Counted from the stretch's first letter, positions 5,993 through 43,261 are shown. The stretch: 64,000 nt of DNA from Patescibacteria group bacterium (GCA_040902515.1 JBBDXB010000006.1:574017-638016), one strand, 5' to 3'. Numbers and translations are program-made. The notes: a model not told the origin generated them from the sequence alone.

Positions 5993-7189
5993 TTACTGCC
6001 CGATATCGAGCTTCTTGCCGCCCCGGGCGGCCGCTTTGCCTTCGGATGAACCGGATGCCGCCTCGTCTTTCGCCGCGGCCTTGGGAAGGCTGAGGACGAA
6101 CGCATTGCCGGTATTGGTGCCGGTCACCGAGAACCGGGCGCGATGCGCCTCGATGATCTGCTGGGCGATGTAGTAGCCGATACCCTCCTCGAAGCCCTGC
6201 GCGCCGACGTAATCGAAGACGTTCTGCTGCTGGTCGCGGGCCAGCGGCGCTCCCTGGTTCTCGATCCGGAACTCGACTTCGGGATCCGTTTCCTGGAGGT
6301 TGAACGAGACCTCGCTCTTCGGAGCGGATGTCCGGGCGGCGGTGTTGGCGATCATCGAAAGCAGACGCCCCACTTCCGTGACATCCACCTCGATCTCCGC
6401 GTCCGTGCCCGGTTTGCCGGCATTCAGCGTTCGTGACGATTCGGCGACCGTCGTGGCGAGCTTGTCGGTGGCCTGCGTGAATAGCTCTTTCGCGGCGATC
6501 CGCTGCTTGCGTACGGCGATCTTCTCCTCGGAGAGGGTCTCGATCCGGGCCATGTCCTCGATGATCCGGAGCAGCTTGTTGGCGCTGTCCAGGATCGTCT
6601 GTACTTTGCTGAGCGCATCCTTGGGGAGCTTCCCGGCGTCTCCGGAAAGGAGCAGGTCGGCGTAGCCTTTCATGGCGGTGATCGGTGCCCGGAGCTCGAA
6701 CGAGGAGAGGTTCACGAGGCGCTTTCGGAGTTCCTTCTCCGCCTGTTCGGTCGTGGCGTCGACCAGGACCACCACGTGGTACCCGGGCGGATAGGTCAGG
6801 GAGCGTTTGGCGGCGTAGACCGGCGTCAGCGTACCGTCCTGCGCCGTGACCGTACCCTGGCGCTTGCGTTCGGTCAGCTTGAGCGGCTTGCCGCCACCGT
6901 CTATCGAAAGCACCGTCTCGAGCGGCTGATGGAACGACGAGCGGCCTTCCCGGCCGGTCATCGTCGCAAACGACTGGTTGGCATACTCGACGGTGCCCTC
7001 CGGGTCGACCAGGGCCACGCCCTCGTCGAGGTGCTGTCCGAACTCTTCCCAGAGCTTGAAGCGGTCGGCGGCTTCCTCGGTGGTCTGCTTGATCGCGTCC
7101 TGGGCGCCGGCCTGTCGGAACAGGGAACGGATCAGCAACACGAGGGTTACGAGGAACGCGGTGGCGAAGATGAACGTAAGCGTATCCAC
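5993..7189 (-). CDS. PAS-domain histidine-kinase-like protein with degenerate catalytic motifs (phospho-acceptor His replaced by Phe); GTG start
   Basis: N-terminal TM, PAS-like region (LVDPEGTVEYANQSFATMTGRE). HisKA-like block reads NLSSFELRAPITAMKGYADLL (F where the conserved H of SHELRxPLT sits). ATPase N/G boxes are degenerate (MIANTAARTS; IENQGAPLA). Converges on the kinase at 4517-5992 with zero gap. Confidence 0.6.
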   Translation of the reverse strand: MDTLTFIFATAFLVTLVLLIRSLFRQAGAQDAIKQTTEEAADRFKLWEEFGQHLDEGVALVDPEGTVEYANQSFATMTGREGRSSFHQPLETVLSIDGGGKPLKLTERKRQGTVTAQDGTLTPVYAAKRSLTYPPGYHVVVLVDATTEQAEKELRKRLVNLSSFELRAPITAMKGYADLLLSGDAGKLPKDALSKVQTILDSANKLLRIIEDMARIETLSEEKIAVRKQRIAAKELFTQATDKLATTVAESSRTLNAGKPGTDAEIEVDVTEVGRLLSMIANTAARTSAPKSEVSFNLQETDPEVEFRIENQGAPLARDQQQNVFDYVGAQGFEEGIGYYIAQQIIEAHRARFSVTGTNTGNAFVLSLPKAAAKDEAASGSSEGKAAARGGKKLDIGQ

Positions 7190-7282
7190 GCCGCCAGTCT
7201 ACAGGCCGCGGGCGCGCGCCACTAGTTCGGTGCGGACCCGCTGCTTTGCGGTCGGAGCCATGCGTCCGGCACAATGGAGTGG

Positions 7283-7366
7283 GCCGGGGTGGCGGAACTG
7301 GCATACGCGACGGACTCAAAATCCGTTGCCCGCAAGGGCTTGTGGGTTCGAATCCCACCCCCGGCA
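7283..7366 (+). tRNA. tRNA-Leu (anticodon CAA), class II with long variable arm
   Basis: Acceptor stem gccgggg/ccccggc, U8, anticodon loop cuCAAaa, variable-arm hairpin gccc-gcaa-gggc, T-loop gggttcgaatccc, discriminator A. Confidence 0.8.
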
Positions 7367-7406
7367 CCGTTTGCCGCCGGTCATCCGGCGTCGTAGGGTT
7401 AAATCG

Positions 7407-8216
7407 ATGGAGTCGCCAGAGGCCACGTACCAAGCACCCGCCCGTCCGCCCCGGCGCGATCCGGCCGACGTGCTGTGGCGGTTCGCGAAGGGTATCTTCC
7501 CGCTGGTACTGATCGGCGTAGCCGTGTACCTGGTCTTCAACTTTCCGGCGCTTTGGACGCGTCTGACGTTCATGGTCAGCAGCCCGGAGAGCGCTTCGGC
7601 GGCGACGTTGCCGGAAGTGGTGCGGACCGGAACCTTGCCGGGAGGTGGTGATGGTGCCGGTCAGGCCGGCGTGCCCTGCGAAGGGAACATCCCATACGAC
7701 GGCAGCGGTAACCCGCGCGCCATCTGCGACAACTACATTTATATTCCGCGTATCCGGGTAGCCGCACCGATCGTCCGTCCCGCATCCACGTCGGAAGCGG
7801 TGATCAACGACGCGCTCCTTCGCGGCGTGATCAAGTATCCCGGCACCGCCGACCCCGGCGAGAAGGGTAACCTGTTCCTGACCGGACACAGCTCTTACTA
7901 CTGGTGGGTGGATACCGACTATCGTAATGTCTTCGCCCTGGTTCCCGAGCTTCGCGTCGGTGACGAGATCGTGGTGTATCACCGGGGCAAACGGTATCTC
8001 TACCGCACCCACCGGACCTTCGAAGTCGCCCCCACCCACACCGACGTCCTGAAACCGACCCGTGAGTCGATGGTGACGCTCTCGACCTGCGTGCCGGTCG
8101 GTACGAGCTATCGGCGGATCATCATCCGAGCCCGGCAGATCAGCCCCGATCCGGCCACGAACGTGGCTCCCGGCGAATCAGCCGAAACGCCCGCCCGGCT
8201 GCCGGGTGTCCGCTAG
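7407..8216 (+). CDS. Sortase family transpeptidase (membrane-anchored)
   Basis: N-terminal TM (LVLIGVAVYLVFNF); catalytic His in LFLTGHSSYY; TLSTC Cys motif; conserved Arg in RRIIIRA. Candidate enzyme for the LPVTG substrate at 1224-2927. Confidence 0.8.
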   Translation: MESPEATYQAPARPPRRDPADVLWRFAKGIFPLVLIGVAVYLVFNFPALWTRLTFMVSSPESASAATLPEVVRTGTLPGGGDGAGQAGVPCEGNIPYDGSGNPRAICDNYIYIPRIRVAAPIVRPASTSEAVINDALLRGVIKYPGTADPGEKGNLFLTGHSSYYWWVDTDYRNVFALVPELRVGDEIVVYHRGKRYLYRTHRTFEVAPTHTDVLKPTRESMVTLSTCVPVGTSYRRIIIRARQISPDPATNVAPGESAETPARLPGVR

Positions 8217-16234: not shown

Positions 16235-17017
16235 ATGCCTATGAGTGAACGAGAATCGGACCAGCGTCCCGAAGCGGCTGAGTTCAGGGTGGAATCCGAC
16301 CTGGATCCGTGGCGGATCGAGGAAATGGTCGATGCGTTCCTCGAGGATCCCGATGCGCTGAACCGGACGTGGGACAAGCTCGCCCGGGACGAGCGGGAGG
16401 GCAGGCCGGATCCCGTCGAGCGGGCGTACGTTTCCGCGGCCACCAGGACCATCGTCGAGATGGCGAAGGAATCGGAACGTGACCACCTGACCGGCCTGCG
16501 AAACCGCCGGGCATTGGAAGGTACCGTCGACACCAGGGGGGATTTCGAGAAGGAGGTCGCCACCGCGAAACGCGAAGGGTACCCCCTTTCGTTCGTCGTC
16601 CTCGACCTCAAGGGGTTCGGGGAGATCAACGAGGAAAAGGACCATGCCATCGGCGACCAGACGCTCAGGGAAGTCGGGGATGCCATGAAGGCCATCGGCT
16701 ACCTGGTGCGTAGCCGCTTGCGGTCCGGTGACATCGGTTACCGCTTCGGCGGAGATGAATTCGGCATCATGCTCCCCCGGATCGGCTCGAAGGAGCAGGC
16801 CGAGACCATCGTCACGCGTTTGGGCAAACATTTCCCGACCAACCCGGTCACCGGTGCGCGGGTGGAGATGAACGAACCGCTGTCGGTCGTGACCTACCAG
16901 CCGACCGACCGGGAAGGCGATGATGCCGACGTGGCGAAGGAGCTTCTTGTGGAGGTTTGGCAAAACCTCCACAAAGACAAGGCTTCTGGGGACTCGGATC
17001 CGGCAGAAGCCGGATGA
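16235..17017 (+). CDS. GGDEF-domain diguanylate cyclase (short N-terminal region)
   Basis: DHLTGLRNRRAL, FVVLDLKGFGEIN, intact RFGGDEFGIMLP (GGDEF) motif. Confidence 0.8.
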   Translation: MPMSERESDQRPEAAEFRVESDLDPWRIEEMVDAFLEDPDALNRTWDKLARDEREGRPDPVERAYVSAATRTIVEMAKESERDHLTGLRNRRALEGTVDTRGDFEKEVATAKREGYPLSFVVLDLKGFGEINEEKDHAIGDQTLREVGDAMKAIGYLVRSRLRSGDIGYRFGGDEFGIMLPRIGSKEQAETIVTRLGKHFPTNPVTGARVEMNEPLSVVTYQPTDREGDDADVAKELLVEVWQNLHKDKASGDSDPAEAG

Positions 17018-30396: not shown

Positions 30397-31587
30397 ATGG
30401 CGGAGCGGACGGAGCGATTGTTGCAAATCGGCGCGGGGAACATCGGCCGCGGACTGGTAGGATCCCTGGCGCACGATGCCGGCATGGAGCTTACGCTGGC
30501 GGACGTAAACCCGGACGTGATCGGCCGGCTCAACGCCGAACGGGAATATCAGGTGGTCACCGTGTCGTCCGAAGGGACGGCCGAGCAAGTGGTGGACGGC
30601 GTGCAGGCGGTGGATGTCCGGGACCGCGACGCGTTCACCAAAGCGGTCGTCGAGGCGGACGTGATCACGACGGCGGTCGGTCCCGGCGTGCTCCCGAAGC
30701 TCGGGCCGGAACTCGGCGCGGCACTGACGGAGCGGCTGCGCCGCCGCCCGGGTGCCGACATGCACGTGGTGGTGGTCGCCTGCGAGAACATCGTGGACAA
30801 TACTGACCGCCTCAAAGAGGCGGTGCTTGGTAGCGTGCCGGATGAAACGGCGAGGCAGATGGAAGACCTGGTCAGCTTCCCGAATTGCACCGTCGACCGG
30901 ATCGTCCCCGAACACCAAGCCTCGGACGAGCCGCTCGCGGTTACCGTGGAGGACTACTACCACTGGGCCGTCGACGCGGAGGCGCTCAAGCAGCCCATGG
31001 CGCACATACCTGGGCTCGTCCTCTCCCACGACCTGGAATCGCTCCAGGAGCAGAAACTCTTCACGTTGAACACCGCGCACGCACTCACCGCTTACTTCGG
31101 TGAACGAGCCGGTTATGAGTATGTCCACGAGGCGATCCAAGATCCACAGATCCGCAGCCAGGTCATGGGCGCGATGAGGGAGATCGGACCGGTGATCACC
31201 GGACGGTACGAGGCCATTACGGCCATCGATCAACGGGCGTACGCCGAGCGGACCCTGGACCGTTTCGCGAACCCGCATCTCCAGGACAGCCTGCGCCGGG
31301 TCGGGCGCGATCCGATCCGCAAGCTTGGTCGGAGCGACCGGTTGGTGCGACCGGCGGTACTCAGCCTTTCCGCGGGAGAGACCCCCGCCCATCTGGCCAG
31401 CGGCATCCATGCCGCTCTCACGTACCGCAATCCGGACGATCCGCAAGCCGCCGCGCTGGCCCAGCGGCTCGCCGACGAATCGGTCGAAAGCATCCTGGTC
31501 GACGTCAGCGAGCTCGAAGGGGGGCACCCCGTCGTCAGCATGGTGCGGGCATCGGTCGGGCTTGAACGGCTAAGCAAGGCGGCCTAG
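30397..31587 (+). CDS. mtlD: Mannitol-1-phosphate 5-dehydrogenase-like (mannitol dehydrogenase family) NAD-dependent oxidoreductase
   Basis: N-terminal [29 protein letters not shown] closely follows the MtlD pattern [44 protein letters not shown] matches IIACENMVRGTTQL. Confidence 0.7.
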   Translation: [396 protein letters not shown]

Positions 31588-33635: not shown

Positions 33636-33735
33636 GGCCCGCGTCCGGGAGTAATCGCCGCTCGCTTGAGGCGGGGTAGTCCCGCTGCTACGCTAACCCG
33701 TTGCAGCGGCCATTGCTGCGCCTTGCTCCAAGGCG

Positions 33736-33764
33736 TTGACTTTTTACCTGAATAATGCTATAAT
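33736..33764 (+). promoter_or_regulatory. Near-consensus sigma70-type promoter TTGACT-N17-TATAAT (extended TGc) for the Pro-rich/VirD4-like operon
   Basis: ttgact at 33736-33741, 17-nt spacer, tataat at 33759-33764, ~17 nt upstream of ATG 33782; preceded by a terminator-like hairpin ccgctgc...gcagcgg. Confidence 0.6.
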
Positions 33765-33781
33765 TTCTCGATTCGCTGGAT

Positions 33782-35023
33782 ATGAGTGACCAACACCACA
33801 AAGCCAAGATCCGTAACGCCCAAGCGCGCCATCAGTCGCAGCTGTTCGGCGATGCCGCGCAGAAGCCGTCTTCCCAGGCGGCCGATACGCAGGCGCAGCA
33901 ACGTGCGGGCCACCTGACGGAAGCGGCCCGTGCTAAGGAACGGCGCCTCTCGCAAGCCGAAGAAGCGCGGTTGGCGGCACTGCGGAAACGTAACGAAGCG
34001 GCCCGGCGCAGCCATCAGACGCAGGTACCGTCGGGGCATGCTCCCGATGTGCCTGCCCAGGCGTCGCAGCCTCAATCGAAGCCGCAGGCACGCCCCGAAT
34101 CTCACGATACGCAGCCGTCTCAGCCGGCGATGCCCCGGCGCGCACCCGCTCATCCGTTACGTCAGGTAGCCGAACGGAGCGATATGGCCGCAGCGGCGCT
34201 TGAGAACATGGAGAAGCACTTGCGGGAGCAATCCCAGCAGCCCCCGGCGCCCCAACCGCCGCAGTCCCCACCGGCACCTGCTGAACCGCGGCCGCAACCA
34301 CAGCCACCGCGCCCGGCGCCGCCACAGCCACCGGAACCGGAACCGGAGCCAGAACAGCCTCCTCGGCCGCAACAACCGCCGCAACCGCAACCCCAGCCGG
34401 CCGCACCCCCGCCCCCCCAAGGCCGTGACCGGCCGGCCCCGTCCGGCCAGCCTCGCCCGGCCCGCCGGGCACCTAGTCCGGAGGAGCTCGACCGTCTGCT
34501 CCGGCAGATGGCAGCCCGCAGCCGCACCCGCCCCGGGGCCGGTGCGCAGCAGCCGCGCCCGCCGATGTCTCCGCGCGGCATGTCCGGCGCTCCCGAGGGG
34601 AATCCGGACGCTGCTCCCGTCGAAGCTCCGCCTCCGCCGCCCGAGCTGGTCGAGCAGGAAGCGCGACAGGTCGAGAAGTCCGCGGAAATCCTGAAAGAGC
34701 TCAAGGCCCGCGAAGTCCAGGCGCAGCAGGACATCACGCCGATTCCGCAGGCCGACCAGACCCGGGCCCGGGAAGAAGCCGTCGAGGCGAACCTCCCGAT
34801 CCGTACCCAGGCGAACTCGATCGCCTCGGGGCCGCTCCATGACGCGATCGAGCAGCTTCAGGTGGCGATGCGCGCCCATGACCCGGTCGGACAAGTCCAT
34901 GGGGCGAACTCCGTCCAGCGTCAGATGCCGCACCATCCGCTCTATGATCCCGAGGCTGCCAAACCGGACGCCGCGCCGTCGGACACGCCGCCGGGTGATG
35001 CACCGCAGGAGGGGAAGCAATGA
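33782..35023 (+). CDS. Pro/Gln-rich intrinsically disordered protein (413 aa), translationally coupled to the downstream VirD4-like ATPase
   Basis: Low-complexity PQPPQPQPQPAAPPPP tracts, no TM or signal peptide; stop overlaps the next start (ATGA at 35020). Confidence 0.6.
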   Translation: MSDQHHKAKIRNAQARHQSQLFGDAAQKPSSQAADTQAQQRAGHLTEAARAKERRLSQAEEARLAALRKRNEAARRSHQTQVPSGHAPDVPAQASQPQSKPQARPESHDTQPSQPAMPRRAPAHPLRQVAERSDMAAAALENMEKHLREQSQQPPAPQPPQSPPAPAEPRPQPQPPRPAPPQPPEPEPEPEQPPRPQQPPQPQPQPAAPPPPQGRDRPAPSGQPRPARRAPSPEELDRLLRQMAARSRTRPGAGAQQPRPPMSPRGMSGAPEGNPDAAPVEAPPPPPELVEQEARQVEKSAEILKELKAREVQAQQDITPIPQADQTRAREEAVEANLPIRTQANSIASGPLHDAIEQLQVAMRAHDPVGQVHGANSVQRQMPHHPLYDPEAAKPDAAPSDTPPGDAPQEGKQ

Positions 35024-37437
35024 ACCCCAACTTGCCGGCGCGTGCCCAGCGCATGCTCGACCAGCTCTCCAAGGGCGACAAGAAGGTCGTCAAGAAGCTG
35101 GAGCGGGTACTGCTGGAGGTCCGGGTGCCGCGGCACCGGCCGAAGGAAGGTGAGCGGCAGCAGGAACTCAAGGAGCAGCTCGGCGTGGCGGAGCAGCTCT
35201 TCGCCTCGCTCCATTCGATCTACCGCGGCGGCATGACTTCCCAGCTCTTCGAACAAGACGCGATCAGTTTCGAGGTCGCCGCGCCGGGCGGCGAGATCGG
35301 CTTCTTCGTAGGCGTGCCGCTGCATCTCCAGAGCCTGGTGGAGAAGCAGATTCACGCCTACTATCCGGACGCCGAGATCACCCCGGTGCCGCTCTACAAC
35401 ATATTCGCGCGGCAGGGCTTCGTGGCGGCGACCTCACTGGCGCAGCGGAAGCAAGCCCGCTATCCGATCAAGACCTATCAGGACTTCGAAGCCGACCCGA
35501 TGGCCGGCATCGTGGGATCGCTCGCCAAGCTCGGTCCCGACGAAGGCGCGGCAATCCAGATCATGATCGCTCCGACCGGTCACCGCTGGCGGAAACAAGC
35601 GCAGTCCTACGCCCGGCAGTACGCCCAGGGGAAGTCGGGTACCGGCGGCTCGGCCTCGGGCAAGGTCTTCGGCGGCATCTTCAAGTTCGGCGGCGACCTG
35701 CTCTCCGCGGCGACGACTGATCCCAAGCAGGATGCCCAGAAGCCGGCGCAGGGCTCCGACGAACCGCGGAAGCTGACCCAAATCGAGGAGCAGATGGTCG
35801 AGAAGATCGAGACCAAGGCCGGCTCGCCGGGCTTCGAGGTGGTGATCCGGATCGTTTCCGCCGCCGCCGACAAGGGTGTCGCGGAACTCAACCTCCAGCA
35901 CCTTACCCGGTCGTTCCAGCAGTACGACGCGCCCGACCTCAACGGGTTCAAGGAGATCGTCTCGCCGGTGGCCTCGCAGGCGCGGTTGGTCACCCGGTAC
36001 GTCTTCCGTGAGCTTTCCGGAGCGGGGAAGAAGATGATCCTCGGTCCGGCGGAGCTGGCCTCGATCTGGCACCCGCCGAGCGAGGGCATCGAGACGCCGC
36101 ACGTCCGCTGGCTCGGTGCCAAGACCGCCGCGCCGCCGAGCAACATGCCGCGCGACGGCCTGCTGCTCGGCTACAACCAGTACCGTGGCCAGGCCACCGA
36201 CGTCCGTCTCAAGGAAGACGACCGCCGCCGTCACATGTACGCCGTCGGTAAGACGGGCATGGGTAAGTCGGTGTTCCTCGAGAACATGATCCTGCAGGAC
36301 ATCCGTGCCGGCCGGGGCGTGGCGGTGATCGACCCGCACGGCGACCTCGCCGAGAAGGTCCTCAGCAAGGTTCCGCGCGAGCGGGCCGAGGACGTGGTCT
36401 ACTTCGACCCCGGCGACGCGGAACGGCCGATGGCCTTCAACATGCTCGACTATGCCACGCCGGAGCAGAAGGACTTCGTGGTACAGGAGACCGTGGGCAT
36501 CTTCTACAAGCTCTTCGGCGAAGAGATGATCGGGCCGAAGTTCGAGCACTGGACGCGGAACGGCATCCTGACCCTGATGGAGGACAAGGAGACCGGCGCG
36601 GTGCTCTTCGACCTGCCGCGGCTCTTCTCCGAGCGCGAGTTCGCCGCCCAGAAGATCGCCAAGGTGAAGGATCCGGTCGTGAAGTCCTTCTGGCAGCGTG
36701 AGATGGCCCAGACCTCCGACTTCCATAAGTCGGAGATGCTCGGCTACTTCATCTCCAAGTTCGGCCGGTTCATCACCAACGAGATGATGCGGAACATCAT
36801 CGGCCAACCGAAGTCCGCGTTCGACATCCGGCAGGTGATGGACGAGGGCAAGATCCTGATCATGAACCTCGGCAAGGGCCGGGTCGGCGAGATCAACTCA
36901 TCGCTGCTCGGCATGATCGCGGTCAGTAAGATCCAGATGGCGGCGATGAGCCGGGTGGACACGCCGGAGCACAAGCGGAAGGATTTCTACCTCTACGTCG
37001 ACGAGTTCCAGAACCTCACCAACGAGGAGTCGATCCAGTCGATCCTCTCCGAGGCGCGGAAGTACCGCCTGAACCTGACGATCGCCCACCAGTACATCGC
37101 CCAGCTCGACGAAAAGGTCCGCGACGCGGTGTTCGGGAACGTCGGGACGGCGGTGAGCTTCCGGGTCGGCGCGGACGATGCCGAGTACCTCGAGAAGCAG
37201 TTCGAGCCGGTGTTCGACGCCCACGACCTCCTGAACCTCGACAAAGCCAACTGCTACGCCAAGCTGGTGATCGACGGGCTCTCCACCCGGGCGTTCAACA
37301 TGAAGACCTACTCGCCGGAGCCGGTGACGCAGGAGGATGCCGAGATCGGCGAGGCGATCCGGAAGCTCTCGCGGCTCAAGTATGGACGCGACAAACAGCT
37401 GGTCGATTACGAGATCCGGATGCGGAGCAACCTGTGA
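35020..37437 (+). CDS. VirD4/TraG/TraD-like type IV secretion coupling-protein-type ATPase (805 aa) with N-terminal domain of unknown function
   Basis: Walker A VGKTGMGKSVFLENMIL, VIDPHGDL, Walker B/TraM-recognition-like FYLYVDEFQNL, C-terminal arginine-finger-like region. No VirB-type partners nearby. Confidence 0.65.
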   Translation: MNPNLPARAQRMLDQLSKGDKKVVKKLERVLLEVRVPRHRPKEGERQQELKEQLGVAEQLFASLHSIYRGGMTSQLFEQDAISFEVAAPGGEIGFFVGVPLHLQSLVEKQIHAYYPDAEITPVPLYNIFARQGFVAATSLAQRKQARYPIKTYQDFEADPMAGIVGSLAKLGPDEGAAIQIMIAPTGHRWRKQAQSYARQYAQGKSGTGGSASGKVFGGIFKFGGDLLSAATTDPKQDAQKPAQGSDEPRKLTQIEEQMVEKIETKAGSPGFEVVIRIVSAAADKGVAELNLQHLTRSFQQYDAPDLNGFKEIVSPVASQARLVTRYVFRELSGAGKKMILGPAELASIWHPPSEGIETPHVRWLGAKTAAPPSNMPRDGLLLGYNQYRGQATDVRLKEDDRRRHMYAVGKTGMGKSVFLENMILQDIRAGRGVAVIDPHGDLAEKVLSKVPRERAEDVVYFDPGDAERPMAFNMLDYATPEQKDFVVQETVGIFYKLFGEEMIGPKFEHWTRNGILTLMEDKETGAVLFDLPRLFSEREFAAQKIAKVKDPVVKSFWQREMAQTSDFHKSEMLGYFISKFGRFITNEMMRNIIGQPKSAFDIRQVMDEGKILIMNLGKGRVGEINSSLLGMIAVSKIQMAAMSRVDTPEHKRKDFYLYVDEFQNLTNEESIQSILSEARKYRLNLTIAHQYIAQLDEKVRDAVFGNVGTAVSFRVGADDAEYLEKQFEPVFDAHDLLNLDKANCYAKLVIDGLSTRAFNMKTYSPEPVTQEDAEIGEAIRKLSRLKYGRDKQLVDYEIRMRSNL

Positions 37438-37513
37438 CCGTCGCGCCCGAAGGACCGTTTATGGTGAGTATACCCGCATGACACGTACACGCCTAGGGGC
37501 TATAATACGGCGT

Positions 37514-37942
37514 ATGACTGACGTAAGAGATATGTACAAGTTCGTCCAGTACGTTGACTCGGACGAATACAATCCTGACCCAAAACAGTTCAAGGAACCG
37601 CACGAAGCTGAGCAATACTGTGCAAAGCACTACGCAGAGAAGTTGGGGATTACGCAGTACGAAGCTACGAAAATTCTTAACAATGCCACGATCGAGAGTC
37701 GCCAGTATGCAAAGGTAATCGGCGATGATCCGCGAGGGTACAAGCTGGAGATAACTGTTGGTCCTGGCAGAACTGGCGTTCACCTTATATCAAAGACGTT
37801 TGGAATTCCGTTAGGTTTGTGGGACGAAATCCAAAAAGAATACGACACTACTACGAGAACGATTGTGAGTCTTGTTGTGGGATTACTAGGCGGCGGCAGC
37901 TTCGCTACACTCGTCATCTTTGCTTTCTCGATATTCAACTAG
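37514..37942 (+). CDS. Hypothetical small protein with C-terminal TM helix, encoded in a lower-GC island
   Basis: ORF MTDVRDMYKFVQYVDSDEYNPDP...; C-terminal IVSLVVGLLGGGSFATLVIFAFSIF; TATAAT box 8 nt upstream of ATG (possible leaderless transcript); GC content clearly below the flanks. Confidence 0.5.
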   Translation: MTDVRDMYKFVQYVDSDEYNPDPKQFKEPHEAEQYCAKHYAEKLGITQYEATKILNNATIESRQYAKVIGDDPRGYKLEITVGPGRTGVHLISKTFGIPLGLWDEIQKEYDTTTRTIVSLVVGLLGGGSFATLVIFAFSIFN

Positions 37943-37945
37943 CGA

Positions 37946-38485
37946 ATGCCTAGCTCGGTTGGTACGATAACTCCGCTAATGCCTAAGAAGAAGCCAGCCA
38001 CAGAAAAAGAGAAGACTATCATCGGGGCGGTTATCCTTGTGGTGATCTTCGTAGTAGGTACAACGGCCTGCACAGGAGTAAGCAACGATGAAAGCGATAC
38101 GAACGACACGGCAAACAATCAGACCAGTGAACCTACTAAAGAACCCCAGAAAAACGAAGAGTCTTTAGTCGATAAGGTCGAGGCAGCATTGGATAAATTG
38201 GGCGAAGGTATGAAACGCGAGCTGGCTTCAACGAGTCCTGACGGCTATCAAGGCGACATAACCAGCGTTGAACCAGCCATAGGCGATGATACCGTTAAGG
38301 TTAATGTATCGACTCGCTTTGAGGACTCAGGCGATGGAATTGATGGTGGGCAAGGCATAGCTCGCAGGATATTCAGCAATATCTGTCTTGATGTTCCAGA
38401 GCTTGGAAGTCTGTATGTAGTAAGCGGCTCTGGATTGGAAAGTAAGTCCGTATATCGCAGTCAAATACCTGGCTGTAAGCAGTAG
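37946..38485 (+). CDS. Putative lipoprotein or secreted protein (179 aa) in the lower-GC island
   Basis: N-terminal hydrophobic segment IIGAVILVVIFVVGTTAC followed by Cys (lipobox-like), acidic/Thr-rich linker. Confidence 0.5.
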   Translation: MPSSVGTITPLMPKKKPATEKEKTIIGAVILVVIFVVGTTACTGVSNDESDTNDTANNQTSEPTKEPQKNEESLVDKVEAALDKLGEGMKRELASTSPDGYQGDITSVEPAIGDDTVKVNVSTRFEDSGDGIDGGQGIARRIFSNICLDVPELGSLYVVSGSGLESKSVYRSQIPGCKQ

Positions 38486-38528
38486 TATATGAGTGTGGCA
38501 GAAAAAGAATCCAACTTCGACAAGCTGA

Positions 38529-39374
38529 TTAAACTCGCTTCGCAGCCCGTTCAATCAGGACGGGGTAAACCAGCACGTTCCGGAGGTTATAGCGGAAAAC
38601 GAACTCGTCCACGTAAGTCTGCAGGTACTTCGGGGAAACGGCGTGGTACGTCCCGTTAATCGACCGCTTTAGCTGGCTCCAAAATCCCTCAATCGAGTTC
38701 GTGTGGATATTCCCTCGGACGTATTCCTTTTCCACGTGCTTGATGATTTTCCGAGATACGGTGGTGCGCCGGTAAATCGCGCTTTCGTCCGTGTGGAGTT
38801 CCGCGTCGTCTGACACGCTGGCCTTGATGAACGGCGTGGCGTTCGTGACGTTCGCCTCGGCGACCCACGCCTTTGCCTTGCCCTTTCGTTCGGTAGCACC
38901 GATCACCGCCGTCTTGTTCGTCCACTTGTTAGCTTGTCCTTTAATCCGTCCGCCGATAAAGGTTTCATCGGCTTCAACGATACCGTCCAGCTTGTCGGCG
39001 TTCTGTTCCATGAGAAGCCTGACTTGTTTGGCGATCCGCCATGCGGTCTTGTATGTGCAACCTAGCTGGCGTTCCAGTTCCTTAGCCGATACCCCGTTCT
39101 TTGAAGTCGAGAACAGGTAGATAGCGTAGAACCAGTTTTTTAGTGGCGTGGCTGACTTGTGGAAAATAGTACCGGCCAACGGGTGCAGCTGATGACCGCA
39201 GTGCATACAGGAATACGCCTTACGCCCTTTCAGCTTGAAGAACTTGGTATCCACGACCCCGCAGCCAGGGCAGGACTTTAATGCCCCGTAGCGGTTCTGA
39301 AACACCTCGTCCAAGCACGCCTCATCTGAGGGATACTGCTTGTTGAAGTCGGCAATGGTGAATCGCTGTTTCAT
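38529..39374 (-). CDS. IS1595-family transposase (N-terminal zinc-ribbon + DDE domain)
   Basis: CPGCGVVDTKFFKLKGRKAYSCMHCGHQ zinc ribbon; WYAIYLF...GVSAKELERQLGCTYKTAWR HTH; DDE region IVEADETFIGG...HTDESAIY...SIEGFWSQLKR characteristic of ISXO2/IS1595 transposases. Confidence 0.85.
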   Translation of the reverse strand: MKQRFTIADFNKQYPSDEACLDEVFQNRYGALKSCPGCGVVDTKFFKLKGRKAYSCMHCGHQLHPLAGTIFHKSATPLKNWFYAIYLFSTSKNGVSAKELERQLGCTYKTAWRIAKQVRLLMEQNADKLDGIVEADETFIGGRIKGQANKWTNKTAVIGATERKGKAKAWVAEANVTNATPFIKASVSDDAELHTDESAIYRRTTVSRKIIKHVEKEYVRGNIHTNSIEGFWSQLKRSINGTYHAVSPKYLQTYVDEFVFRYNLRNVLVYPVLIERAAKRV

Positions 39375-39433
39375 ACTCCCAGCCTACACGAACGCATACG
39401 TGTTGTCAAGGGATAGTTACCCCGTTTATCCCC

Positions 39434-39462
39434 TTGACTTACAGTAAAAATAATGCTATAGT
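39434..39462 (+). promoter_or_regulatory. Promoter TTGACT-N17-TATAGT sharing an aataatgctata core and ctcgattc downstream box with the promoter at 33736
   Basis: ttgact 39434-39439, 17-nt spacer, tatagt 39457-39462, ~42 nt upstream of ATG 39505; homology with 33736-33781 extends beyond the hexamers. Confidence 0.55.
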
Positions 39463-39504: not shown

Positions 39505-40074
39505 ATGCCTGAAGATACGAAACTCCAGACCGTCCGGCAGATGCTGGAAACCGCCGAACAGAACCTGGCTACCGCCAAGCGGATGCTCGCGGAGCTGACC
39601 GGCGAGGCTCCGGCGGCCACGCAGGAGCGGACCGCCGATTTCGGCGTCAAGGCGGAGCGGCTCTCGGTCTCGTCCGAAGGACGGGTCATCGAAGGCGTCT
39701 TCGACGGGAAGGACATGATCGGTCCGGACAAGCGGAAGTATCCGGTACCCGCGAACTACGCCAGCAAGTCGAAGCTCGTGGCCGGCGACGTGCTCAAGCT
39801 CACCGTCACCGACGACGGCAGTTACATCTACAAGCAGATCGGTCCCGTGCCCCGGAAGAAGATGGTCGGCACGCTGACCCAGCAGGGGAATCAGTACCAG
39901 GTCGTGGCCGGCGGCAAGACCTTCAATGTCCTGCTCGCTTCCGTGACCTACTTCAAGGCGCAACCGGGCGACCAGGTCTCCGTGATCGTACCGGAGAGTC
40001 AGGACGCCGAGTGGGCGGCGGTCGACAACCTGATCGTGACTCCCGCGTCTTCCCAGACCGACTCCGACGCTTGA
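39505..40074 (+). CDS. Hypothetical protein (189 aa), N-terminal coiled-coil-like and C-terminal beta-rich region
   Basis: Clean ORF with high-GC codon usage; no motif recognised. Confidence 0.5.
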   Translation: MPEDTKLQTVRQMLETAEQNLATAKRMLAELTGEAPAATQERTADFGVKAERLSVSSEGRVIEGVFDGKDMIGPDKRKYPVPANYASKSKLVAGDVLKLTVTDDGSYIYKQIGPVPRKKMVGTLTQQGNQYQVVAGGKTFNVLLASVTYFKAQPGDQVSVIVPESQDAEWAAVDNLIVTPASSQTDSDA

Positions 40075-40301: not shown

Positions 40302-41840
40302 ATGACTCCAACCAACGCACCGAACACCGAATCCAGCGCCCTGTATCGCGTCCACCGCCCCCAGACTTTCACGGAACTGGCAGGGCAGGACCCGGTCGTC
40401 ACGGCGCTTCGCCAGGCCGTCGCGATGGAACGGGTGGGACATGCCTACCTGTTCACCGGACCGCGCGGCACCGGCAAGACCTCGACGGCGCGGATCCTGG
40501 CCAAGGCGGTGAATTGCGCGAAGCCCAAGCAGGGTGAACCGGACGGCACCTGCGATGCCTGCACGGCCATCGCCAGTGGCTCCTTCCTGGACCTGATCGA
40601 GGTCGATGCGGCCAGCAACCGTGGCATCGACGAGATCCGGGAGCTCCGCGACAAGGTGCGGGTGGCGCCGACCCTCGGCACGCGGAAGGTCTATCTGATC
40701 GACGAAGTCCACATGCTGACCAAGGAGGCCTGGGGCGCGCTACTCAAGACGCTCGAGGAGCCGCCGGAGTTCGTGACGTTCATCCTGGCGACGACGGAAC
40801 CGGAGAAGGTGCCGGCGACGATCAGTTCCCGCTGCCAGCGGTTCGATTTCCGTCCGGCGACCCCCCAGATGCTCCGGACGCGGCTGGAAGCGGTCGCGAA
40901 GGCGGAGTCGCTGAAGGTAGAGCCGGAAGCGCTTGAGGTCGTCGCGCGCGCCGCCGCCGGCTCGTTCCGCGATGCCCTCTCCATGCTCGACACGCTGGCC
41001 GCTTCGGGCGGCGCGGTTACCGCGTCGGCGACACGCGACGCGCTCGGTATCGCCGGCGACGCCCATCTCGACGCGTTGGAGACGGCGGTGCAGCGGCGCG
41101 ACCAGGCCGCGGCCCTGGGGGCCATCGACGAGGCGGCCCGCGCCGGCGTGGCGGCGGACGTGTTCCGGACGGCGTTGGTCTTCCGGCTCCGCGAGCGCCT
41201 ACACCAGGCCGCGGCCGGCAAGACCGACTGGTCCGCGCCCGATCTGATCCGCGCGCTCAAGCTCCTGCTGGCTGCCGGCGAGTGGGCGAAGGATAGTCCG
41301 GTGCCCGAGCTTCCGCTCGAGGTCGCCGTGATCGAATTCATCGGCGGTGTCGCCGCTCCGGCCCCATCCGTTCCTCCCGTAAACAAACCAACACGAAATC
41401 CGGCTGGAGGACCGGGGCCTGATGCTCCGGCCTCCGCCGGGCCGGCTCCGGCCGGTTCACGGCACGCGGCGCCGCAAGGGACTACTAAGCAGAATCCGCC
41501 GGCAAAGGCTCCGGCCGAACCGTCGGCCAAACAGGCGCCGCCGAAAGGTGCCCAGGATCTCTGGGAAAAGCTCCTGACGGCGACCAAGGACCGGTACTCG
41601 CTTTCCGTGTGCCTGCAGAAGACCAGGGCAACGGGCCTCGCCAAGGACACGCTCACGCTTGTCGTACAGTCACCGTTCTTCCTGAACAAGCTTGACGACC
41701 CGGCTACCCGCCGGGCGGTCGAGGGCGAGCTGGAGAAGCTCGCGGGCAAGAAGCTTTCGCTGGACTTGCAGCTCGCGGAGGCTTCGGAAGATCTCTTTGA
41801 GGACGCGCTGAAGACGTTCGACGGGGCGGAGGTGCAATGA
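40302..41840 (+). CDS. dnaX: DNA polymerase III subunit gamma/tau
   Basis: AAA+ clamp-loader motifs GHAYLFTGPRGTGKTS, zinc module CAKPKQGEPDGTCDACTA, DEVHML, SRC (SSRCQRF). Confidence 0.9.
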   Translation: MTPTNAPNTESSALYRVHRPQTFTELAGQDPVVTALRQAVAMERVGHAYLFTGPRGTGKTSTARILAKAVNCAKPKQGEPDGTCDACTAIASGSFLDLIEVDAASNRGIDEIRELRDKVRVAPTLGTRKVYLIDEVHMLTKEAWGALLKTLEEPPEFVTFILATTEPEKVPATISSRCQRFDFRPATPQMLRTRLEAVAKAESLKVEPEALEVVARAAAGSFRDALSMLDTLAASGGAVTASATRDALGIAGDAHLDALETAVQRRDQAAALGAIDEAARAGVAADVFRTALVFRLRERLHQAAAGKTDWSAPDLIRALKLLLAAGEWAKDSPVPELPLEVAVIEFIGGVAAPAPSVPPVNKPTRNPAGGPGPDAPASAGPAPAGSRHAAPQGTTKQNPPAKAPAEPSAKQAPPKGAQDLWEKLLTATKDRYSLSVCLQKTRATGLAKDTLTLVVQSPFFLNKLDDPATRRAVEGELEKLAGKKLSLDLQLAEASEDLFEDALKTFDGAEVQ

Positions 41841-43261
41841 CTCCCGAGTCCCGTCCCACCGCCGCCGCCACGCAGGCCCAGGGGCCGATGTTGCCGCAGA
41901 ACGTGGAGGCCGAAGCCGCCGTGCTCGGCAGCATCCTCCTCGAGGGTGAAGAGAAGATGGAGCTGGTCGTCGATCGGATCCAGCCGACCGACTTCTACCG
42001 CAAAGCCAACCAGCTCGTGTTCGAGGCGATGCTCGACGTCTTCAAGAAGAACCAGGAACTCGACATCCTCACCGTCACGCACCGGCTGGAAGAGAAGGAC
42101 GTGATCGAACAGATCGGCGGCGCCTCGTACCTCGCCGACCTGACCAGCTCGGTCCCGTCCACCACCAACCTGCCGGCCTACGCCAAGATCGTCGAAGAGA
42201 GTTCGATCCAGCGGCAGGTGATTACGGTGGCCGGGGAAGTCCGGGACAAGGCGTTCGGCGAGGATTTCGAGAGCGTGAAACACCTGGTCGACTTCGCGCA
42301 GAAGCGGCTGTTCGAAGTCGGCCAGGATTTTGCGAAACAGGACTTCACCACGCTGACCCAGGAACTCGACCATTCATTCGAACGCTACGACCTGGCGCAC
42401 CAGAACCGCGGCCAGCTCCACGGCGTGCCCACCGGCTTCAAGTCGCTCGACAACAAACTCTCGGGGCTCCAGCCGGCCAACCTGGTGATCCTGGCCGCCC
42501 GTCCCTCGATGGGTAAGACGACCCTGGCGCTCAACATCGCGCGGAACGCCGCGGTCAAGCACGGCAAGAAGATCGGCATGTTCAGCCTGGAGATGAGCGC
42601 CGACCAGCTGGTGGACCGGCTGGTGTCGCTGGAGGCAGGCATCGACTCCTGGAAGCTCCGCACCGGCCTGCTCGGGGAACGCGACTTCGCGAAGATCGCG
42701 AACGCCATGGACGCGCTCTCTCGCGCCGAGATCTTCGTGGACGACAACTCGGCCCTGACGGTAATGGACATGCGCGCCCGGGCGCGGCGGCTCCACGCCA
42801 CCAAGGGGCTCGACATGGTGATCGTGGACTACCTGCAGATGATGGATGCCGGCGGCGCGAAGTCGGACAACCGCGTGCAGGAAATCTCGGAGATCTCGCG
42901 GGCGCTCAAGTCGCTGGCCCGGGAGCTGAAGGTCCCCGTGCTCGCGCTCTCCCAGCTCTCCCGGGCGGTCGAGCAACGCGATCGCAAGCAGCCCGAGCTC
43001 TCCGACCTCCGGGAATCCGGTGCGATCGAGCAGGACGCCGACGTGGTGATGTTCATCTATCGCGACGACTACTACCGGAAGGATTCGGACCGGCCGAACA
43101 TCGCCGACATCATGATCAAGAAGCATCGGAACGGCCCCACCGGCCAAGTCGAACTGTACTTCTCCGGCGATCGCCAGAAGTTCAGCGATCTCGAGAGGCA
43201 TGCGCCGTCGGAAGCATCCGGGCCGCCGCCTGCCGACGAAGCGCCGCCGCCGTCTGAGTAG
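41837..43261 (+). CDS. dnaB: Replicative DNA helicase DnaB
   Basis: N-terminal DnaG-interaction domain (PQNVEAEAAVLGSILL); Walker A ARPSMGKTTLALN; Walker B MVIVDYLQ; QLSR arginine finger. Start overlaps dnaX stop. Confidence 0.9.
   Translation: MTPESRPTAAATQAQGPMLPQNVEAEAAVLGSILLEGEEKMELVVDRIQPTDFYRKANQLVFEAMLDVFKKNQELDILTVTHRLEEKDVIEQIGGASYLADLTSSVPSTTNLPAYAKIVEESSIQRQVITVAGEVRDKAFGEDFESVKHLVDFAQKRLFEVGQDFAKQDFTTLTQELDHSFERYDLAHQNRGQLHGVPTGFKSLDNKLSGLQPANLVILAARPSMGKTTLALNIARNAAVKHGKKIGMFSLEMSADQLVDRLVSLEAGIDSWKLRTGLLGERDFAKIANAMDALSRAEIFVDDNSALTVMDMRARARRLHATKGLDMVIVDYLQMMDAGGAKSDNRVQEISEISRALKSLARELKVPVLALSQLSRAVEQRDRKQPELSDLRESGAIEQDADVVMFIYRDDYYRKDSDRPNIADIMIKKHRNGPTGQVELYFSGDRQKFSDLERHAPSEASGPPPADEAPPPSE

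Follow-up and report, generated by a model that had tools for sequence, protein, structure and literature searches.

A chromosomal VirB4/VirD4-hybrid ATPase of Patescibacteria, paired with a disordered protein and encoded apart from T4SS genes

An 805-aa protein encoded in a 64,000-nt stretch of DNA (the window; positions are counted from its first letter) was found to combine a module resembling the N-terminal domain of VirB4 with a VirD4/TrwB-type T4SS coupling protein (T4CP) ATPase with intact catalytic motifs. It is an anciently domesticated coupling protein, which is now a chromosomal core gene encoded apart from any T4SS. Together with the gene of a disordered protein directly upstream, upX, it forms a core syntenic gene pair of its lineage, and sequence comparisons indicate that the ATPase gene is a vertically inherited core chromosomal gene throughout the phylum, present in nearly all Patescibacteria. 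The best overall explanation is a domesticated coupling motor with a disordered adaptor that serves a remotely encoded T4SS; we assign it a probability of about 0.5.

Organization of the gene pair

The features of the locus are collected in Table 1. Both ORFs were recovered as a sequence-only reading of the window had given them, with lengths of 413 and 805 aa and an ATGA overlap. The spacing between the GGAGG Shine-Dalgarno motif and the ATG of the ATPase gene is 7 nt. The promoter had been described as a perfect consensus, which is slightly overstated because the -35 element reads TTGACT, giving 11 of 12 matches to TTGACA/TATAAT; its presence was confirmed, and TTGACT-N17-TATAAT is present at a single site of the window and in none of 100 shuffles. 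The upX ATG lies 17 nt past the -10 element, which results in a very short leader. The stem-loop at the 3' side of the PBP1A gene is terminator-like and would separate the transcription unit of the pair from that upstream gene.

Table 1. Positions of the gene pair, its signals and its neighbors in the window
Feature	Position	Strand	Description
G+C-rich stem-loop and T-run after PBP1A gene	33718..33736	+	8-bp stem, 5 GC pairs, T-rich tail
Sigma-70-type promoter	33736..33764	+	TTGACT-N17-TATAAT, TG-extended -10; sequence match
upX, partner protein	33782..35023	+	413-aa ORF
Translational-coupling junction	35008..35023	+	GGAGG Shine-Dalgarno 35008-35012, then ATGA start/stop overlap 35020-35023 (read from sequence)
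ATPase	35020..37437	+	805-aa ORF
N-terminal domain, residues 1-378	35020..36153	+	Pfam DUF8128; VirB4 N-terminal-domain fold
C-terminal T4CP-type P-loop ATPase	36154..37437	+	profile, PDB and Foldseek matches; invariant catalytic residues
Walker A GKTGMGKS	36247-36270	+	
Walker B YLYVDEFQ	36988-37011	+	
Variable spacer with window-specific low-GC insertion	37438..39433	.	outside the module
Small membrane/lipoprotein-like ORFs	37514-37942, 37979-38485	+	
IS1595-family transposase	38529-39374	-	
Second promoter-like site ahead of d189	39434..39462	+	TTGACT-N17-TATAGT, TG-extended
d189, conserved 189-aa protein	39505..40074	+	N-terminal predicted helix, invariant motif
dnaX	40302..41840	+	conserved downstream neighbor, context
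dnaB	41837-43261		after dnaX; conserved downstream neighbor, context

Domain architecture of the ATPase

The motifs GKTGMGKS, DPHGD and FYLYVDEFQ reported earlier were all seen in the translation of the 805-aa ORF. Four Pfam families scored above their gathering cut-offs, namely T4SS-DNA_transf (PF02534; 44.6 bits, cut-off 20.1), TrwB_AAD_bind (PF10412; 38.4 bits, cut-off 20.5), TraG-D_C (PF12696; 28.5 bits, cut-off 22) and DUF87 (23.9 bits, cut-off 23.2; residues 394-464 only). The only sequence matches in the PDB were TrwB (E 1.5e-8) and DotL (9e-6). These matches bear out the earlier assignment of the C-terminal half to the T4SS coupling-protein type. Foldseek aligned the predicted structure with TrwB over about 415 columns (E about 1e-12, TM-score normalised to target 0.61-0.65), and an all-helical insert is predicted at about residues 482-608, the position at which T4CPs hold their all-alpha domain. 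In a 20-sequence alignment (A1), G410, T412, G413, G415, K416, D661 and E662 are invariant; the same holds for a 92-sequence alignment (A2), except that T412 is conserved in at least 90%. The mean column identity of the family in these alignments is 52-58%.

The N-terminal domain had been regarded as unassigned. It is Pfam DUF8128 (PF26449), which was found together with the T4CP ATPase in one polypeptide by the precomputed Pfam match on an identical protein, and which is also recorded on nearly all of the best 120 homologues listed. Its predicted structure takes the fold of the VirB4 N-terminal domain and is not a HAS barrel, and the low-confidence stretch is solely a disordered loop at about residues 207-246. 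The identity of this domain to VirB4/TrwK is only 6%. In the literature searched, no mention of DUF8128 was found. No hydrophobic segment was detected in the first 130 residues of the ATPase or elsewhere in it; the best 19-residue Kyte-Doolittle mean, 1.28, falls on a beta-strand of the N-domain. By comparison, a single N-terminal TM helix is present in 81 of 87 relatives.

Comparison with related ATPases

In canonical T4CPs, an N-terminal two-helix membrane domain directly precedes the ATPase. The window protein resembles TrwB (R388), VirD4 and DotL in the sequence of its ATPase domain, and TrwB in its predicted fold; the helical insert at the all-alpha position may correspond to their all-alpha domain. 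It differs from them in that it has a VirB4-like domain of about 380 residues instead, that its clade lacks a TM helix, and that its gene is unlinked to a relaxase or T4SS.

T4CPs, FtsK and HerA form one superfamily of ring translocases. Accordingly, the ATPase shares the P-loop superfamily with FtsK/SpoIIIE and HerA, with weak Pfam and PADLOC matches to them and Foldseek matches to HerA. Nevertheless, when profiles for VirD4/TraG, HerA/FtsK and DUF87 were checked, the T4CP families were best and FtsK stayed below its cut-off. FtsK/SpoIIIE was rejected, as FtsK_SpoIIIE (PF01580) reached only 13.8 bits against a cut-off of 24, covering just the P-loop residues 399-425, and the FtsK gamma-domain family was absent among the ATPase matches. 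HerA was rejected as well, because the DUF87 match is marginal, the N-domain is VirB4-like, and neither a NurA-like neighbor nor a HAS barrel was seen at the locus. The anti-phage system MADS was also considered, as mad8 matched the ATPase domain with 44.6 bits; it was discarded because the four neighboring ORFs scanned gave no PADLOC match, to another mad gene or otherwise, and the context consists of housekeeping genes.

The disordered upstream partner

The upX protein is rich in Pro (18.6%), Ala (16%), Gln (12.8%) and Arg and is predicted to be intrinsically disordered. It has no hydrophobic or TM segment (best 19-residue Kyte-Doolittle mean 0.28) and no match in Pfam or NCBIfam. Orthologues were found in 4 related genomes, with identities of 36-57% in L002, L085 and L086, and they share an N-terminal motif (K-I-R-N-A-Q-A-R-H-Q-S-x-L-F-G-D), the motif APSPEELDxLLRxMA and a C-terminal HHPLYDP. 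The gene evolves fast. Of the 13 indels in the most closely related pair, 11 have a length that is a multiple of 3, and third codon positions diverge more (0.54) than first (0.33) and second (0.31) ones. These patterns and the orthologues indicate that upX is a real gene. In P0017/L087 upX and the ATPase are a single fused protein. The earlier description of the upstream gene as disordered, free of TM segments and ATGA-coupled thus agrees with the results, and the translational coupling in the window and the fusion in the sister genome both support that the two proteins form one unit.

In about 68 of 80 loci, a gene on the same strand directly precedes the ATPase gene. The upstream genes of about 40 loci fall into recurring families with small, disordered products, and gaps of -4 to about +20 nt to the ATPase gene are frequent among them. 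A 4-nt ATGA-type start/stop overlap is present in 7 loci, the window counted. A second fusion of an upstream partner to the ATPase was found in L071, and paralogues carry long disordered C-tails.

Conservation and genomic context

Among 8,000 scored candidates, 4,685 ATPase homologues were obtained at E <= 1e-5. Except for a few fragments, the best 120 homologues listed are full-length; where an organism is named, it mostly belongs to Patescibacteria. The 80 loci, with 40-49% identity to the ATPase, come from at least 14 candidate phyla. The gene order TopA-PBP1A-upX-ATPase-d189-DnaX-DnaB is common to the related genomes whose contigs extend that far, with the fused form in L087, and the ATPase orthologues in these genomes are 75-87% identical. 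The GC3 of the ATPase gene, 0.91, equals that of the neighboring housekeeping genes, so its codon usage is native; the downstream island has values of 0.47-0.71.

The downstream gene d189 is a syntenic partner of the ATPase gene in many Patescibacteria, and an array of the ATPase, a 190-aa protein and dnaX is conserved in many lineages. The d189 identity is 68-71% within the clade and 53-54% to Doudnabacteria, and the motif EGVFxG...NYASKSKLVxGDxLKL...YKQIGP is invariant. It matched no family, and none of its at least 8000 homologues has a Pfam assignment. In the window, the spacer between the ATPase gene and d189 has 2067 bp versus about 430-1270 bp in L002 and L085-L087, and the ORFs called in those spacers match none of the island ORFs. 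The IS island is an insertion specific to the window, which interrupts the conserved array. The IS-containing low-GC island described earlier is present (IS1595, GC 0.51-0.55 at 37-39 kb), but it lies outside the unit.

A Pfam scan of the about 30 largest ORFs of the window yielded only housekeeping genes; VirB4, VirB6, relaxase and pilin genes were not found, and neither were VirB3, VirB6 or VirB8 neighbors. The ATPase gene is thus apart from T4SS genes within the window, in line with the sequence-only reading, and no relaxase or mating-pair-formation genes are linked to it in the loci inspected or in the 64-kb window; such linkage was seen only in distant relatives on plasmids. That reading had proposed a remnant of a conjugative element. 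A decaying coupling gene that is tied to the adjacent IS island would fit the T4CP-type ATPase without a nearby T4SS or relaxase, the transposase and low-GC DNA directly downstream, and the full-length relatives on conjugative-type plasmids. However, a recent remnant is very improbable in view of the syntenic orthologues, the spacers of relatives, whose called ORFs match none of the island ORFs, the 40-50% identity across the phylum with invariant catalytic residues, and the housekeeping-like GC3. Moreover, the plasmid relatives are only 24-29% identical, and 2.9 million IMG/VR contigs yielded only 13 matches, mostly ATPase-only proteins. The sequence-only reading had itself named conserved synteny of a core pair as refuting evidence. 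Such synteny was observed in the related genomes, the ATPase occurs throughout Patescibacteria and its codon usage is native; the remnant proposal was therefore abandoned. The other suggestion made there, a lineage-specific translocation module, came close to the truth.

The distribution agrees with a published survey by HMM (Quinonero-Coronel et al. 2025, PMC12102498). It reports 5,713 VirD4-type T4CP homologues in 2,918 of 3,035 Patescibacteria genomes, only 148 of the 5,713 near virB4, and VirB4 in 2,417 genomes; the orphan homologues amount to about 2 copies per genome, and exaptation was suggested (PMC12102498). The window family is almost certainly the same as these orphan T4CP homologues. 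The text searched of that paper contained no description of TM-less clades, of the VirB4-like N-domain, of an upstream disordered partner and its fusions, or of synteny with d189 and dnaX.

Relatives in plasmid conjugation modules

Matches to the ATPase occur in 385 plasmid records. A protein encoded on the Bacillus subtilis MH-1 plasmid NZ_CP032854 (WP_121549396.1, an 886-aa "DUF87 domain-containing protein") has 26% identity over ATPase residues 58-768 (E 5e-54). The N-domain motifs ISFE..G.I.FFV.VP, PIKTY and ILG..E.A.I...PSE as well as Walker A and B can be aligned, and the plasmid protein also has no N-terminal TM helix. Both have a disordered region, an acidic C-tail in the plasmid protein and the N-terminal partner, separate or fused in the sister genome, in the window family. 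The plasmid gene differs in that it sits in a conjugation module, where it is followed by genes for a replication-relaxation protein, TcpE, an 848-aa ATP-binding protein in the VirB4 position and conjugal transfer proteins. In contrast, the window ATPase is chromosomal, located between PBP1A and dnaX without a T4SS or relaxase within 64 kb, and phylum-wide. In Natrinema, two adjacent, overlapping genes encode the N-domain and the ATPase separately, beside a conjugal transfer protein gene. The same two-domain architecture is thus found at the coupling-protein position of conjugation modules of Bacillus and haloarchaeal plasmids, which argues for ancient domestication of a coupling protein. The ATPase is of deep descent from a conjugative coupling protein.

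Possible functions

As a coupling motor, the ATPase would assemble as a hexamer into an ATP-driven ring on the inner side of the membrane, by analogy with TrwB and VirD4. Most relatives would be anchored by their N-terminal TM helix; the window clade seems to have lost this helix and presumably docks via partners. Small membrane or partner proteins may serve as docking sites for the VirB4-like N-domain, as VirB3/VirB8 do for VirB4. Membrane docking is conjectural here because neither the ATPase nor upX has a TM helix. Canonical T4CPs carry a flexible adaptor tail in cis, e.g., the C-tail of TraD or the C-terminal extension of DotL, and the disordered partner may be a comparable tail that recruits a protein or DNA substrate. 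The most likely destination would be an MPF-FATA-derived T4SS that is encoded elsewhere and has no coupling protein of its own. Such systems are present in about 80% of Patescibacteria (PMC12102498), and the Southlakia T4SS cluster is without a recognisable coupling protein (PMC12102498; PMC10633639). Against T4SS coupling, no T4SS gene lies within the 64-kb window, T4CP homologues are found in 96% of the genomes versus 80% for VirB4 (PMC12102498), and the Southlakia t4cp is non-essential in the Tn-seq result cited there although the T4SS is essential (PMC12102498). The wider distribution and the non-essentiality indicate that the motor may act independently of a T4SS; the latter could also stem from redundancy of the paralogues, as a genome has about 2 copies.

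We consider it quite improbable that the protein is instead a VirB4-like assembly ATPase of an unrecognised envelope machine, which would energise pilus or channel assembly and pilin extraction, with the upstream proteins as VirB3-like docking factors. The top Foldseek match in the PDB is indeed TrwK/VirB4, over the full length (about 880 aligned columns, E 1e-15), a small gene directly precedes the ATPase gene as virB3 precedes virB4, and the products of several upstream families end in an amphipathic or hydrophobic helix, which in L071 is fused exactly at the TM-helix site of other homologues. However, the ATPase sequence fits T4CP profiles, no Pfam VirB4 family was among its matches, and the NCBIfam VirB4-type models TraC, CD1110 and Mbov_0397 reached 15-20 bits against cut-offs of 325-590, covering little beyond the P-loop. 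Furthermore, the Bacillus plasmid has the separate 848-aa protein after TcpE in addition to the homologue, which adjoins the relaxase-type gene and thus takes the T4CP position, and none of the inspected loci has a linked pilin or channel gene.

Possible, if rather unlikely, is a T4SS-independent DNA motor, in which the ATPase would work with its partner and the 190-aa protein on DNA of the chromosome or DNA entering the cell, in the manner of FtsK/SpoIIIE or of the archaeal VirB4-like importers Ced/Ted and without coupling to secretion. Chromosome pumping or clearing at budding or asymmetric division, Xer-type dimer resolution and competence DNA uptake are possible roles. A phylum-wide housekeeping VirB4/VirD4-hybrid ring ATPase that works on DNA without a T4SS, with the fast-evolving disordered adaptor and the conserved 190-aa protein, e.g., in chromosome delivery to the bud or in DNA import, is a variant that is about as unlikely. 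The common ring-translocase superfamily, the HerA/FtsK matches and a weak match to the NCBIfam model of CedD, a DNA-translocating ATPase of archaea, are consistent with a DNA motor, as is a family that is wider than VirB4 and non-essential where the T4SS is essential (PMC12102498). However, FtsK_SpoIIIE stayed below its cut-off, and replacement of FtsK is not needed, since most Patescibacteria bins are annotated with canonical FtsK/SpoIIIE (PMC10469934) and TM7x has an ftsK gene (PMC10768705). No DNA-binding fold could be demonstrated for d189, as its MazE match is weak (E 0.085) and hhalign against AbrB gave a probability of 0.85%. The replication and recombination neighbors (dnaX, dnaB, recR, gyrBA and xerC/D-type genes) could reflect a DNA-handling role or merely an origin-proximal location, as for the T4SS cluster itself (PMC12102498). 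If the ATPase were a T4SS-free DNA motor, the operon link to dnaX would be functional and not positional. In Parcubacteria-type loci and the window clade, the genes of the ATPase, d189 and dnaX are tightly spaced on one strand, and in the window dnaB, ybaB, recR, topA, mfd and dprA are close by. In about 20 Microgenomates loci, the ATPase gene is followed by genes for a XerC/D-type recombinase and DivIC/FtsB, but the Xer gene is convergent and outside the ATPase transcript. In L047 and L049, gyrB-gyrA adjoin the ATPase gene.

Organisation of the gene pair

The two ORFs described from the sequence alone were recovered as a 413-aa partner protein and the 805-aa ATPase, with the stop codon of the first overlapping the start codon of the second (ATGA). 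A GGAGG motif is located 7 nt 5' of the ATPase ATG in the junction sequence. The catalytic motifs GKTGMGKS, DPHGD and FYLYVDEFQ were all found intact in the ATPase translation. The predicted promoter, TTGACT-N17-TATAAT, is present, but it is not the perfect consensus that had been claimed, since its -35 element differs from TTGACA by one base. Its -10 element is TG-extended, and the site, unique within the 64 kb, did not occur in any of 100 shuffles. A stem-loop with a T-run directly 5' of the promoter sets it apart from the PBP1A gene.

The partner protein is rich in Pro (18.6%), Ala (16%) and Gln (12.8%) and has no hydrophobic segment. Sequence comparison indicates that it is encoded by a real gene, the G+C-rich background notwithstanding. 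Orthologues occur in four related genomes, and in the closest pair 11 of the 13 indels are multiples of three, with a divergence of 0.54 at third codon positions versus 0.33 and 0.31 at positions 1 and 2. Many long ORFs, antisense or out of frame, run across real genes throughout the window (examples in the table); they result from the high G+C content, show atypical GC1/2/3 values and are not to be counted as genes.

Features of the gene pair and of its surroundings in the window
Feature	Coordinates	Strand	Remarks
SdrD-B/SpaA-type surface protein	1224-2927		
Sortase	6978-8216		412 aa
GGDEF protein	16235-17017		
Mannitol dehydrogenase	30397-31587		
Stem-loop and T-run	33718-33736		directly 5' of promoter
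Promoter	33736-33764		TTGACT-N17-TATAAT
Partner ORF	33782-35023	+	413 aa
Antisense ORF	34157-35020	-	not counted as a gene
ATPase ORF	35020-37437	+	805 aa
Antisense ORF	35434-36807	-	not counted as a gene
Low-GC insertion	37438-39433		GC 0.51-0.55
Small membrane-type ORF	37514-37942		C-terminal TM helix
Small membrane-type ORF	37979-38485		lipoprotein-like N-terminus ending in Cys
IS1595-family transposase	38529-39374	-	within low-GC insertion
d189	39505-40074		189 aa; cluster c1 (with L002, L003, L005 and others)

Domains and predicted fold of the ATPase

The proposed VirD4/TraG-type character was borne out for the C-terminal half, which matched Pfam families of T4SS coupling proteins (T4CPs) above the cut-offs (T4SS-DNA_transf, 44.6 bits; TrwB_AAD_bind, 38.4; TraG-D_C, 28.5). 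TraD/VirD4-type models also ranked top in NCBIfam, all under the family cut-offs, and the only PDB sequences matched in a profile search were TrwB and DotL. The N-terminal domain, which had been left unassigned, corresponds to Pfam DUF8128 (PF26449) according to a precomputed match; this name was not found in the literature searched. An AlphaFold2 model built from 92 sequences was confident (pLDDT 85.6), with the exception of a loop at residues 207-246. The top Foldseek match in the PDB was full-length TrwK/VirB4 (E 1e-15, about 880 aligned columns), followed by TrwB for the C-terminal half only (TM-score normalised to the target 0.61-0.65) and then by HerA and Cag-beta. Judged from the model, the N-terminal half has the VirB4 N-domain fold. 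A single N-terminal TM helix is present in 81 of 87 family members and absent from the clade of the window.

Conservation and synteny

The ATPase is a core protein of Patescibacteria. An identical protein is encoded on an NCBI metagenome-assembled contig (GCA_040881485.1), and close relatives are labelled "Patescibacteria group bacterium". In a search of 5.8 billion proteins, at least 4,685 of the 8,000 scored candidates were homologues with E <= 1e-5, and most of the best 120 listed had a query coverage above 95%. Identity was 75-87% within the clade and dropped to about 50% in Doudnabacteria, Parcubacteria and further groups. With one genome per species, at least 80 loci were among the matches listed, with 40-49% identity over residues ~25-805; their hosts include Doudna-, Saccharibacteria, Magasanik-, Berkel-, Uhr-, Levy-, Gottesman-, Woese-, Curtiss-, Davies-, Roizman-, Peregrini-, Gracili- and Staskawiczbacteria. 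In alignments of 20 and 92 sequences, invariant positions included Walker A, Walker B and many more. The conservation is about that of a housekeeping enzyme, and the GC3 of the gene (0.91) is the same as that of its housekeeping neighbours. In a published survey, 5,713 VirD4-type T4CP homologues were found in 2,918 of 3,035 Patescibacteria genomes (Quinonero-Coronel et al. 2025, PMC12102498); this frequency of about 96% is above that of the T4SS, VirB4 occurred in 2,417 genomes, and only 148 of the 5,713 homologues were near virB4 (PMC12102498).

Comparison with related genomes revealed a conserved array, TopA-(x)-PBP1A-partner-ATPase-variable small ORF(s)-190-aa protein-DnaX-DnaB, which is kept in three loci (L002, L085, L086), while in a fourth, L087, partner and ATPase form a single 1,103-aa protein. 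This conserved order refutes the suggestion that the pair is the remnant of a conjugative element. The earlier interpretation was supported only in part, and the observation itself was confirmed.

Other neighbourhoods were found outside the clade. In loci of the Microgenomates type, a convergent gene for a XerC/D-type tyrosine recombinase (20 loci) and one for a DivIC/FtsB septum protein (19 loci) come after the ATPase gene; such loci include L034, L038, L042, L045, L054-L060, L067, L070, L072, L075, L076, L080, L081 and others. In L047 and L049, gyrB-gyrA is next.

The disordered partner

In about 68 of 80 loci listed, the gene immediately 5' of the ATPase gene has the same orientation, and in about 40 of the loci listed it belongs to recurring families of small proteins (90-350 aa) with a P/E/Q/A-rich disordered N-terminal part. 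The two genes are commonly spaced by -4 to about +20 nt, and the 4-nt start/stop overlap of the ATGA type is shared by the window with L032, L038, L040, L045, L048 and L081. Partners of different classes showed no homology by BLAST and were not alignable; they share only position and disorder, together with a basic amphipathic C-terminal helix, often containing Trp, in several families. Within the clade the partner diverges far faster (36-57% identity) than the ATPase (75-87%) or the downstream protein (68-71%). In the fused protein of L087 (P0017) the window-type partner is joined to the N-terminus of the ATPase, and in L071 a partner of the class-c12 type is fused exactly at the position of the TM helix of other homologues. 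These two fusions indicate, at the level of sequence, that partner and ATPase act together.

Paralogues and some other family members instead carry long disordered C-terminal tails, one protein reaching 1,568 aa. Some lineages, Saccharibacteria and Berkelbacteria among the loci, encode a second TM-DUF8128-T4CP paralogue with such a tail, which matches the roughly two copies per genome in the literature. Paralogues are in tandem in L009, L019 and L068, and in L018, L026 and L027 two of them flank the d189-type gene and a gene for a 346-aa protein with Sigma70_r4 and HARE-HTH domains.

Relatives on plasmids and mobile DNA

A tblastn search of 72,556 plasmids yielded 385 records with a match to the ATPase, 24 of which have a query coverage of 80% or more. 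No match reached 60% identity, and the best listed (24-29%) were from Streptomyces, Bacillus, Staphylococcus, Clostridium, haloarchaea and Sulfolobus. A 24.7-kb plasmid of Bacillus subtilis encodes an 886-aa homologue (26% identity over residues 58-768, E 5e-54) that has N-domain motifs in common with the window ATPase and bears an acidic C-terminal tail. It is directly followed by genes for a replication-relaxation protein, a conjugal transfer protein, TcpE, an 848-aa ATP-binding protein and a further conjugal transfer protein. From its place beside a relaxase-type gene, we take it to be the coupling protein of its conjugation module. On a Natrinema plasmid, N-domain and T4CP are encoded by two overlapping genes adjoining a conjugal transfer protein gene. 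In this plasmid (NZ_CP084473, 8896-13108; L102), the DUF8128-like 375-aa gene overlaps the start of the 1,031-aa T4CP gene by 11 nt, and the haloarchaeal arrangement is a split form of the DUF8128-T4CP architecture.

The architecture is not restricted to Patescibacteria. These relatives agree with the published view that the patescibacterial T4SS derives from the monoderm/archaeal MPF-FATA class. The ATPase gene of the window is, accordingly, a coupling-protein gene domesticated long ago and no recent remnant.

A few putative viral or mobile IMG/VR contigs (L088-L091) encode proteins of 430-580 aa with 37-47% identity to the C-terminal half of the ATPase only; lacking the DUF8128 N-domain, they are stand-alone motor versions on mobile DNA. 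A role in anti-phage defence was discarded, as the PADLOC mad8 match was not accompanied by partner genes among the four neighbouring ORFs scanned.

The downstream 189-aa protein

The 190-aa protein of the array, called d189 and 189 aa long in the window, belongs to a very large family with at least 8,000 homologues in Patescibacteria. Identity to the window protein is 53-54% in Doudnabacteria. In 25 of 83 loci listed, its gene lies downstream of the ATPase gene in the same orientation, and DnaX is next in 17 loci listed, with CysS and often CorA close by; it often sits between a T4CP-like gene and dnaX. In the window it is preceded by its own promoter-like site, TTGACT-N17-TATAGT. The family has a near-invariant motif, EGVFxGxxMxGxDGxxYxVPxNYASKSKLVxGDxLKLTI...YKQIGP, and none of the best 120 homologues listed has a Pfam domain. 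JGI sometimes names it a "PrlF-type antitoxin"; an AbrB/MazE-fold DNA binder was not supported (Pfam MazE, E 0.085; hhalign against the AbrB N-domain, 0.85% probability). The best PDB sequence match was DotY, which belongs to the coupling-protein complex of Legionella as one of its subunits; with E 0.11 the match is not significant, and a DotY-like T4CP adaptor was not supported either.

Possible role of the ATPase

The role ranked as most likely for the ATPase is delivery to a T4SS encoded elsewhere. The biology of TrwB, VirD4 and VirB4 suggests that it would assemble at the membrane as a hexameric, ATP-driven ring. The VirB4 N-domain binds VirB3/VirB8, and the N-domain of the ATPase may likewise be a docking module. 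Canonical T4CPs carry a substrate- or adaptor-binding tail in cis; the disordered partner could be such a tail, supplied as a separate protein. The patescibacterial T4SS cluster has been described as having no coupling protein of its own (PMC10633639). Confidence in delivery to a T4SS is moderate only, because the family is commoner than VirB4 and was non-essential where the T4SS is essential (PMC12102498); the same authors described the T4CP homologue of Southlakia as non-essential and considered exaptation possible (PMC12102498).

The main rival is a T4SS-independent role in DNA handling, to which the dnaX/dnaB/recR/gyrBA and Xer/DivIC neighbourhoods point. However, this synteny may reflect only an origin-proximal position (PMC12102498), d189 has no demonstrable DNA-binding fold, and canonical FtsK has been reported for these bacteria. 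A replacement of FtsK, an idea prompted by the XerC/D-type and DivIC genes near the ATPase gene in Microgenomates and by dnaX/dnaB/recR elsewhere, was down-weighted because FtsK/SpoIIIE has been reported for most Patescibacteria bins (PMC10469934) and for TM7x (PMC10768705) and because of the convergent orientation of the Xer gene. When all ORFs of the loci were scanned by regex, no other FtsK-like P-loops emerged, which was uninformative.

The family, so far only counted in the literature, has already been noticed and is functionally uncharacterised. The VirB4-like N-domain, the plasmid coupling-protein relatives sharing the DUF8128-T4CP architecture, the conserved, disordered and in places fused partner, the d189-dnaX array and the TM-less clade appear to be undescribed in the literature searched. 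Patescibacteria account for much of the diversity of bacteria, and for most of the proteins conserved among them no role is known. The predicted VirB4 N-domain fold, the same architecture in coupling-protein position on monoderm and archaeal plasmids, and the association with a disordered, sometimes fused partner and a 190-aa protein beside dnaX offer genetic handles for tractable Saccharibacteria. They bear on the divergence of VirB4 and VirD4 and on the cargo of the relaxase-less patescibacterial T4SS.

Genomic surroundings and the low-GC island

Pfam scans of the approximately 30 largest ORFs of the window assigned housekeeping genes only. Upstream of the pair are RF2, a sensor kinase, a sortase, AtpD, MurA, MreB, glycosyltransferases, a GGDEF protein, GltX, DacA, Der, Mfd, DprA, TopA, mannitol dehydrogenase and PBP1A; downstream are DnaX, DnaB, a GT2, CorA, CysS, BipA and VKOR. 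YbaB and RecR homologues were found between GT2 and CorA by tblastn with L002 proteins as queries. These ORFs included no VirB4, VirB6, relaxase or pilin gene, and the description of the ATPase as isolated is therefore correct for the window.

ATPase gene and d189 gene are separated by 2,067 bp of low-GC DNA. In related genomes the same spacer comprises about 430-1,270 bp, and the ORFs called there match none of those of the island, which is therefore a local insertion in a variable spacer. Neither terminal inverted repeats nor a target duplication were found at the IS1595 boundaries. The surface protein, the sortase, the GGDEF protein and mannitol dehydrogenase are atypical for minimal CPR genomes, and together with a G+C content of 64% they suggest a less reduced lineage.
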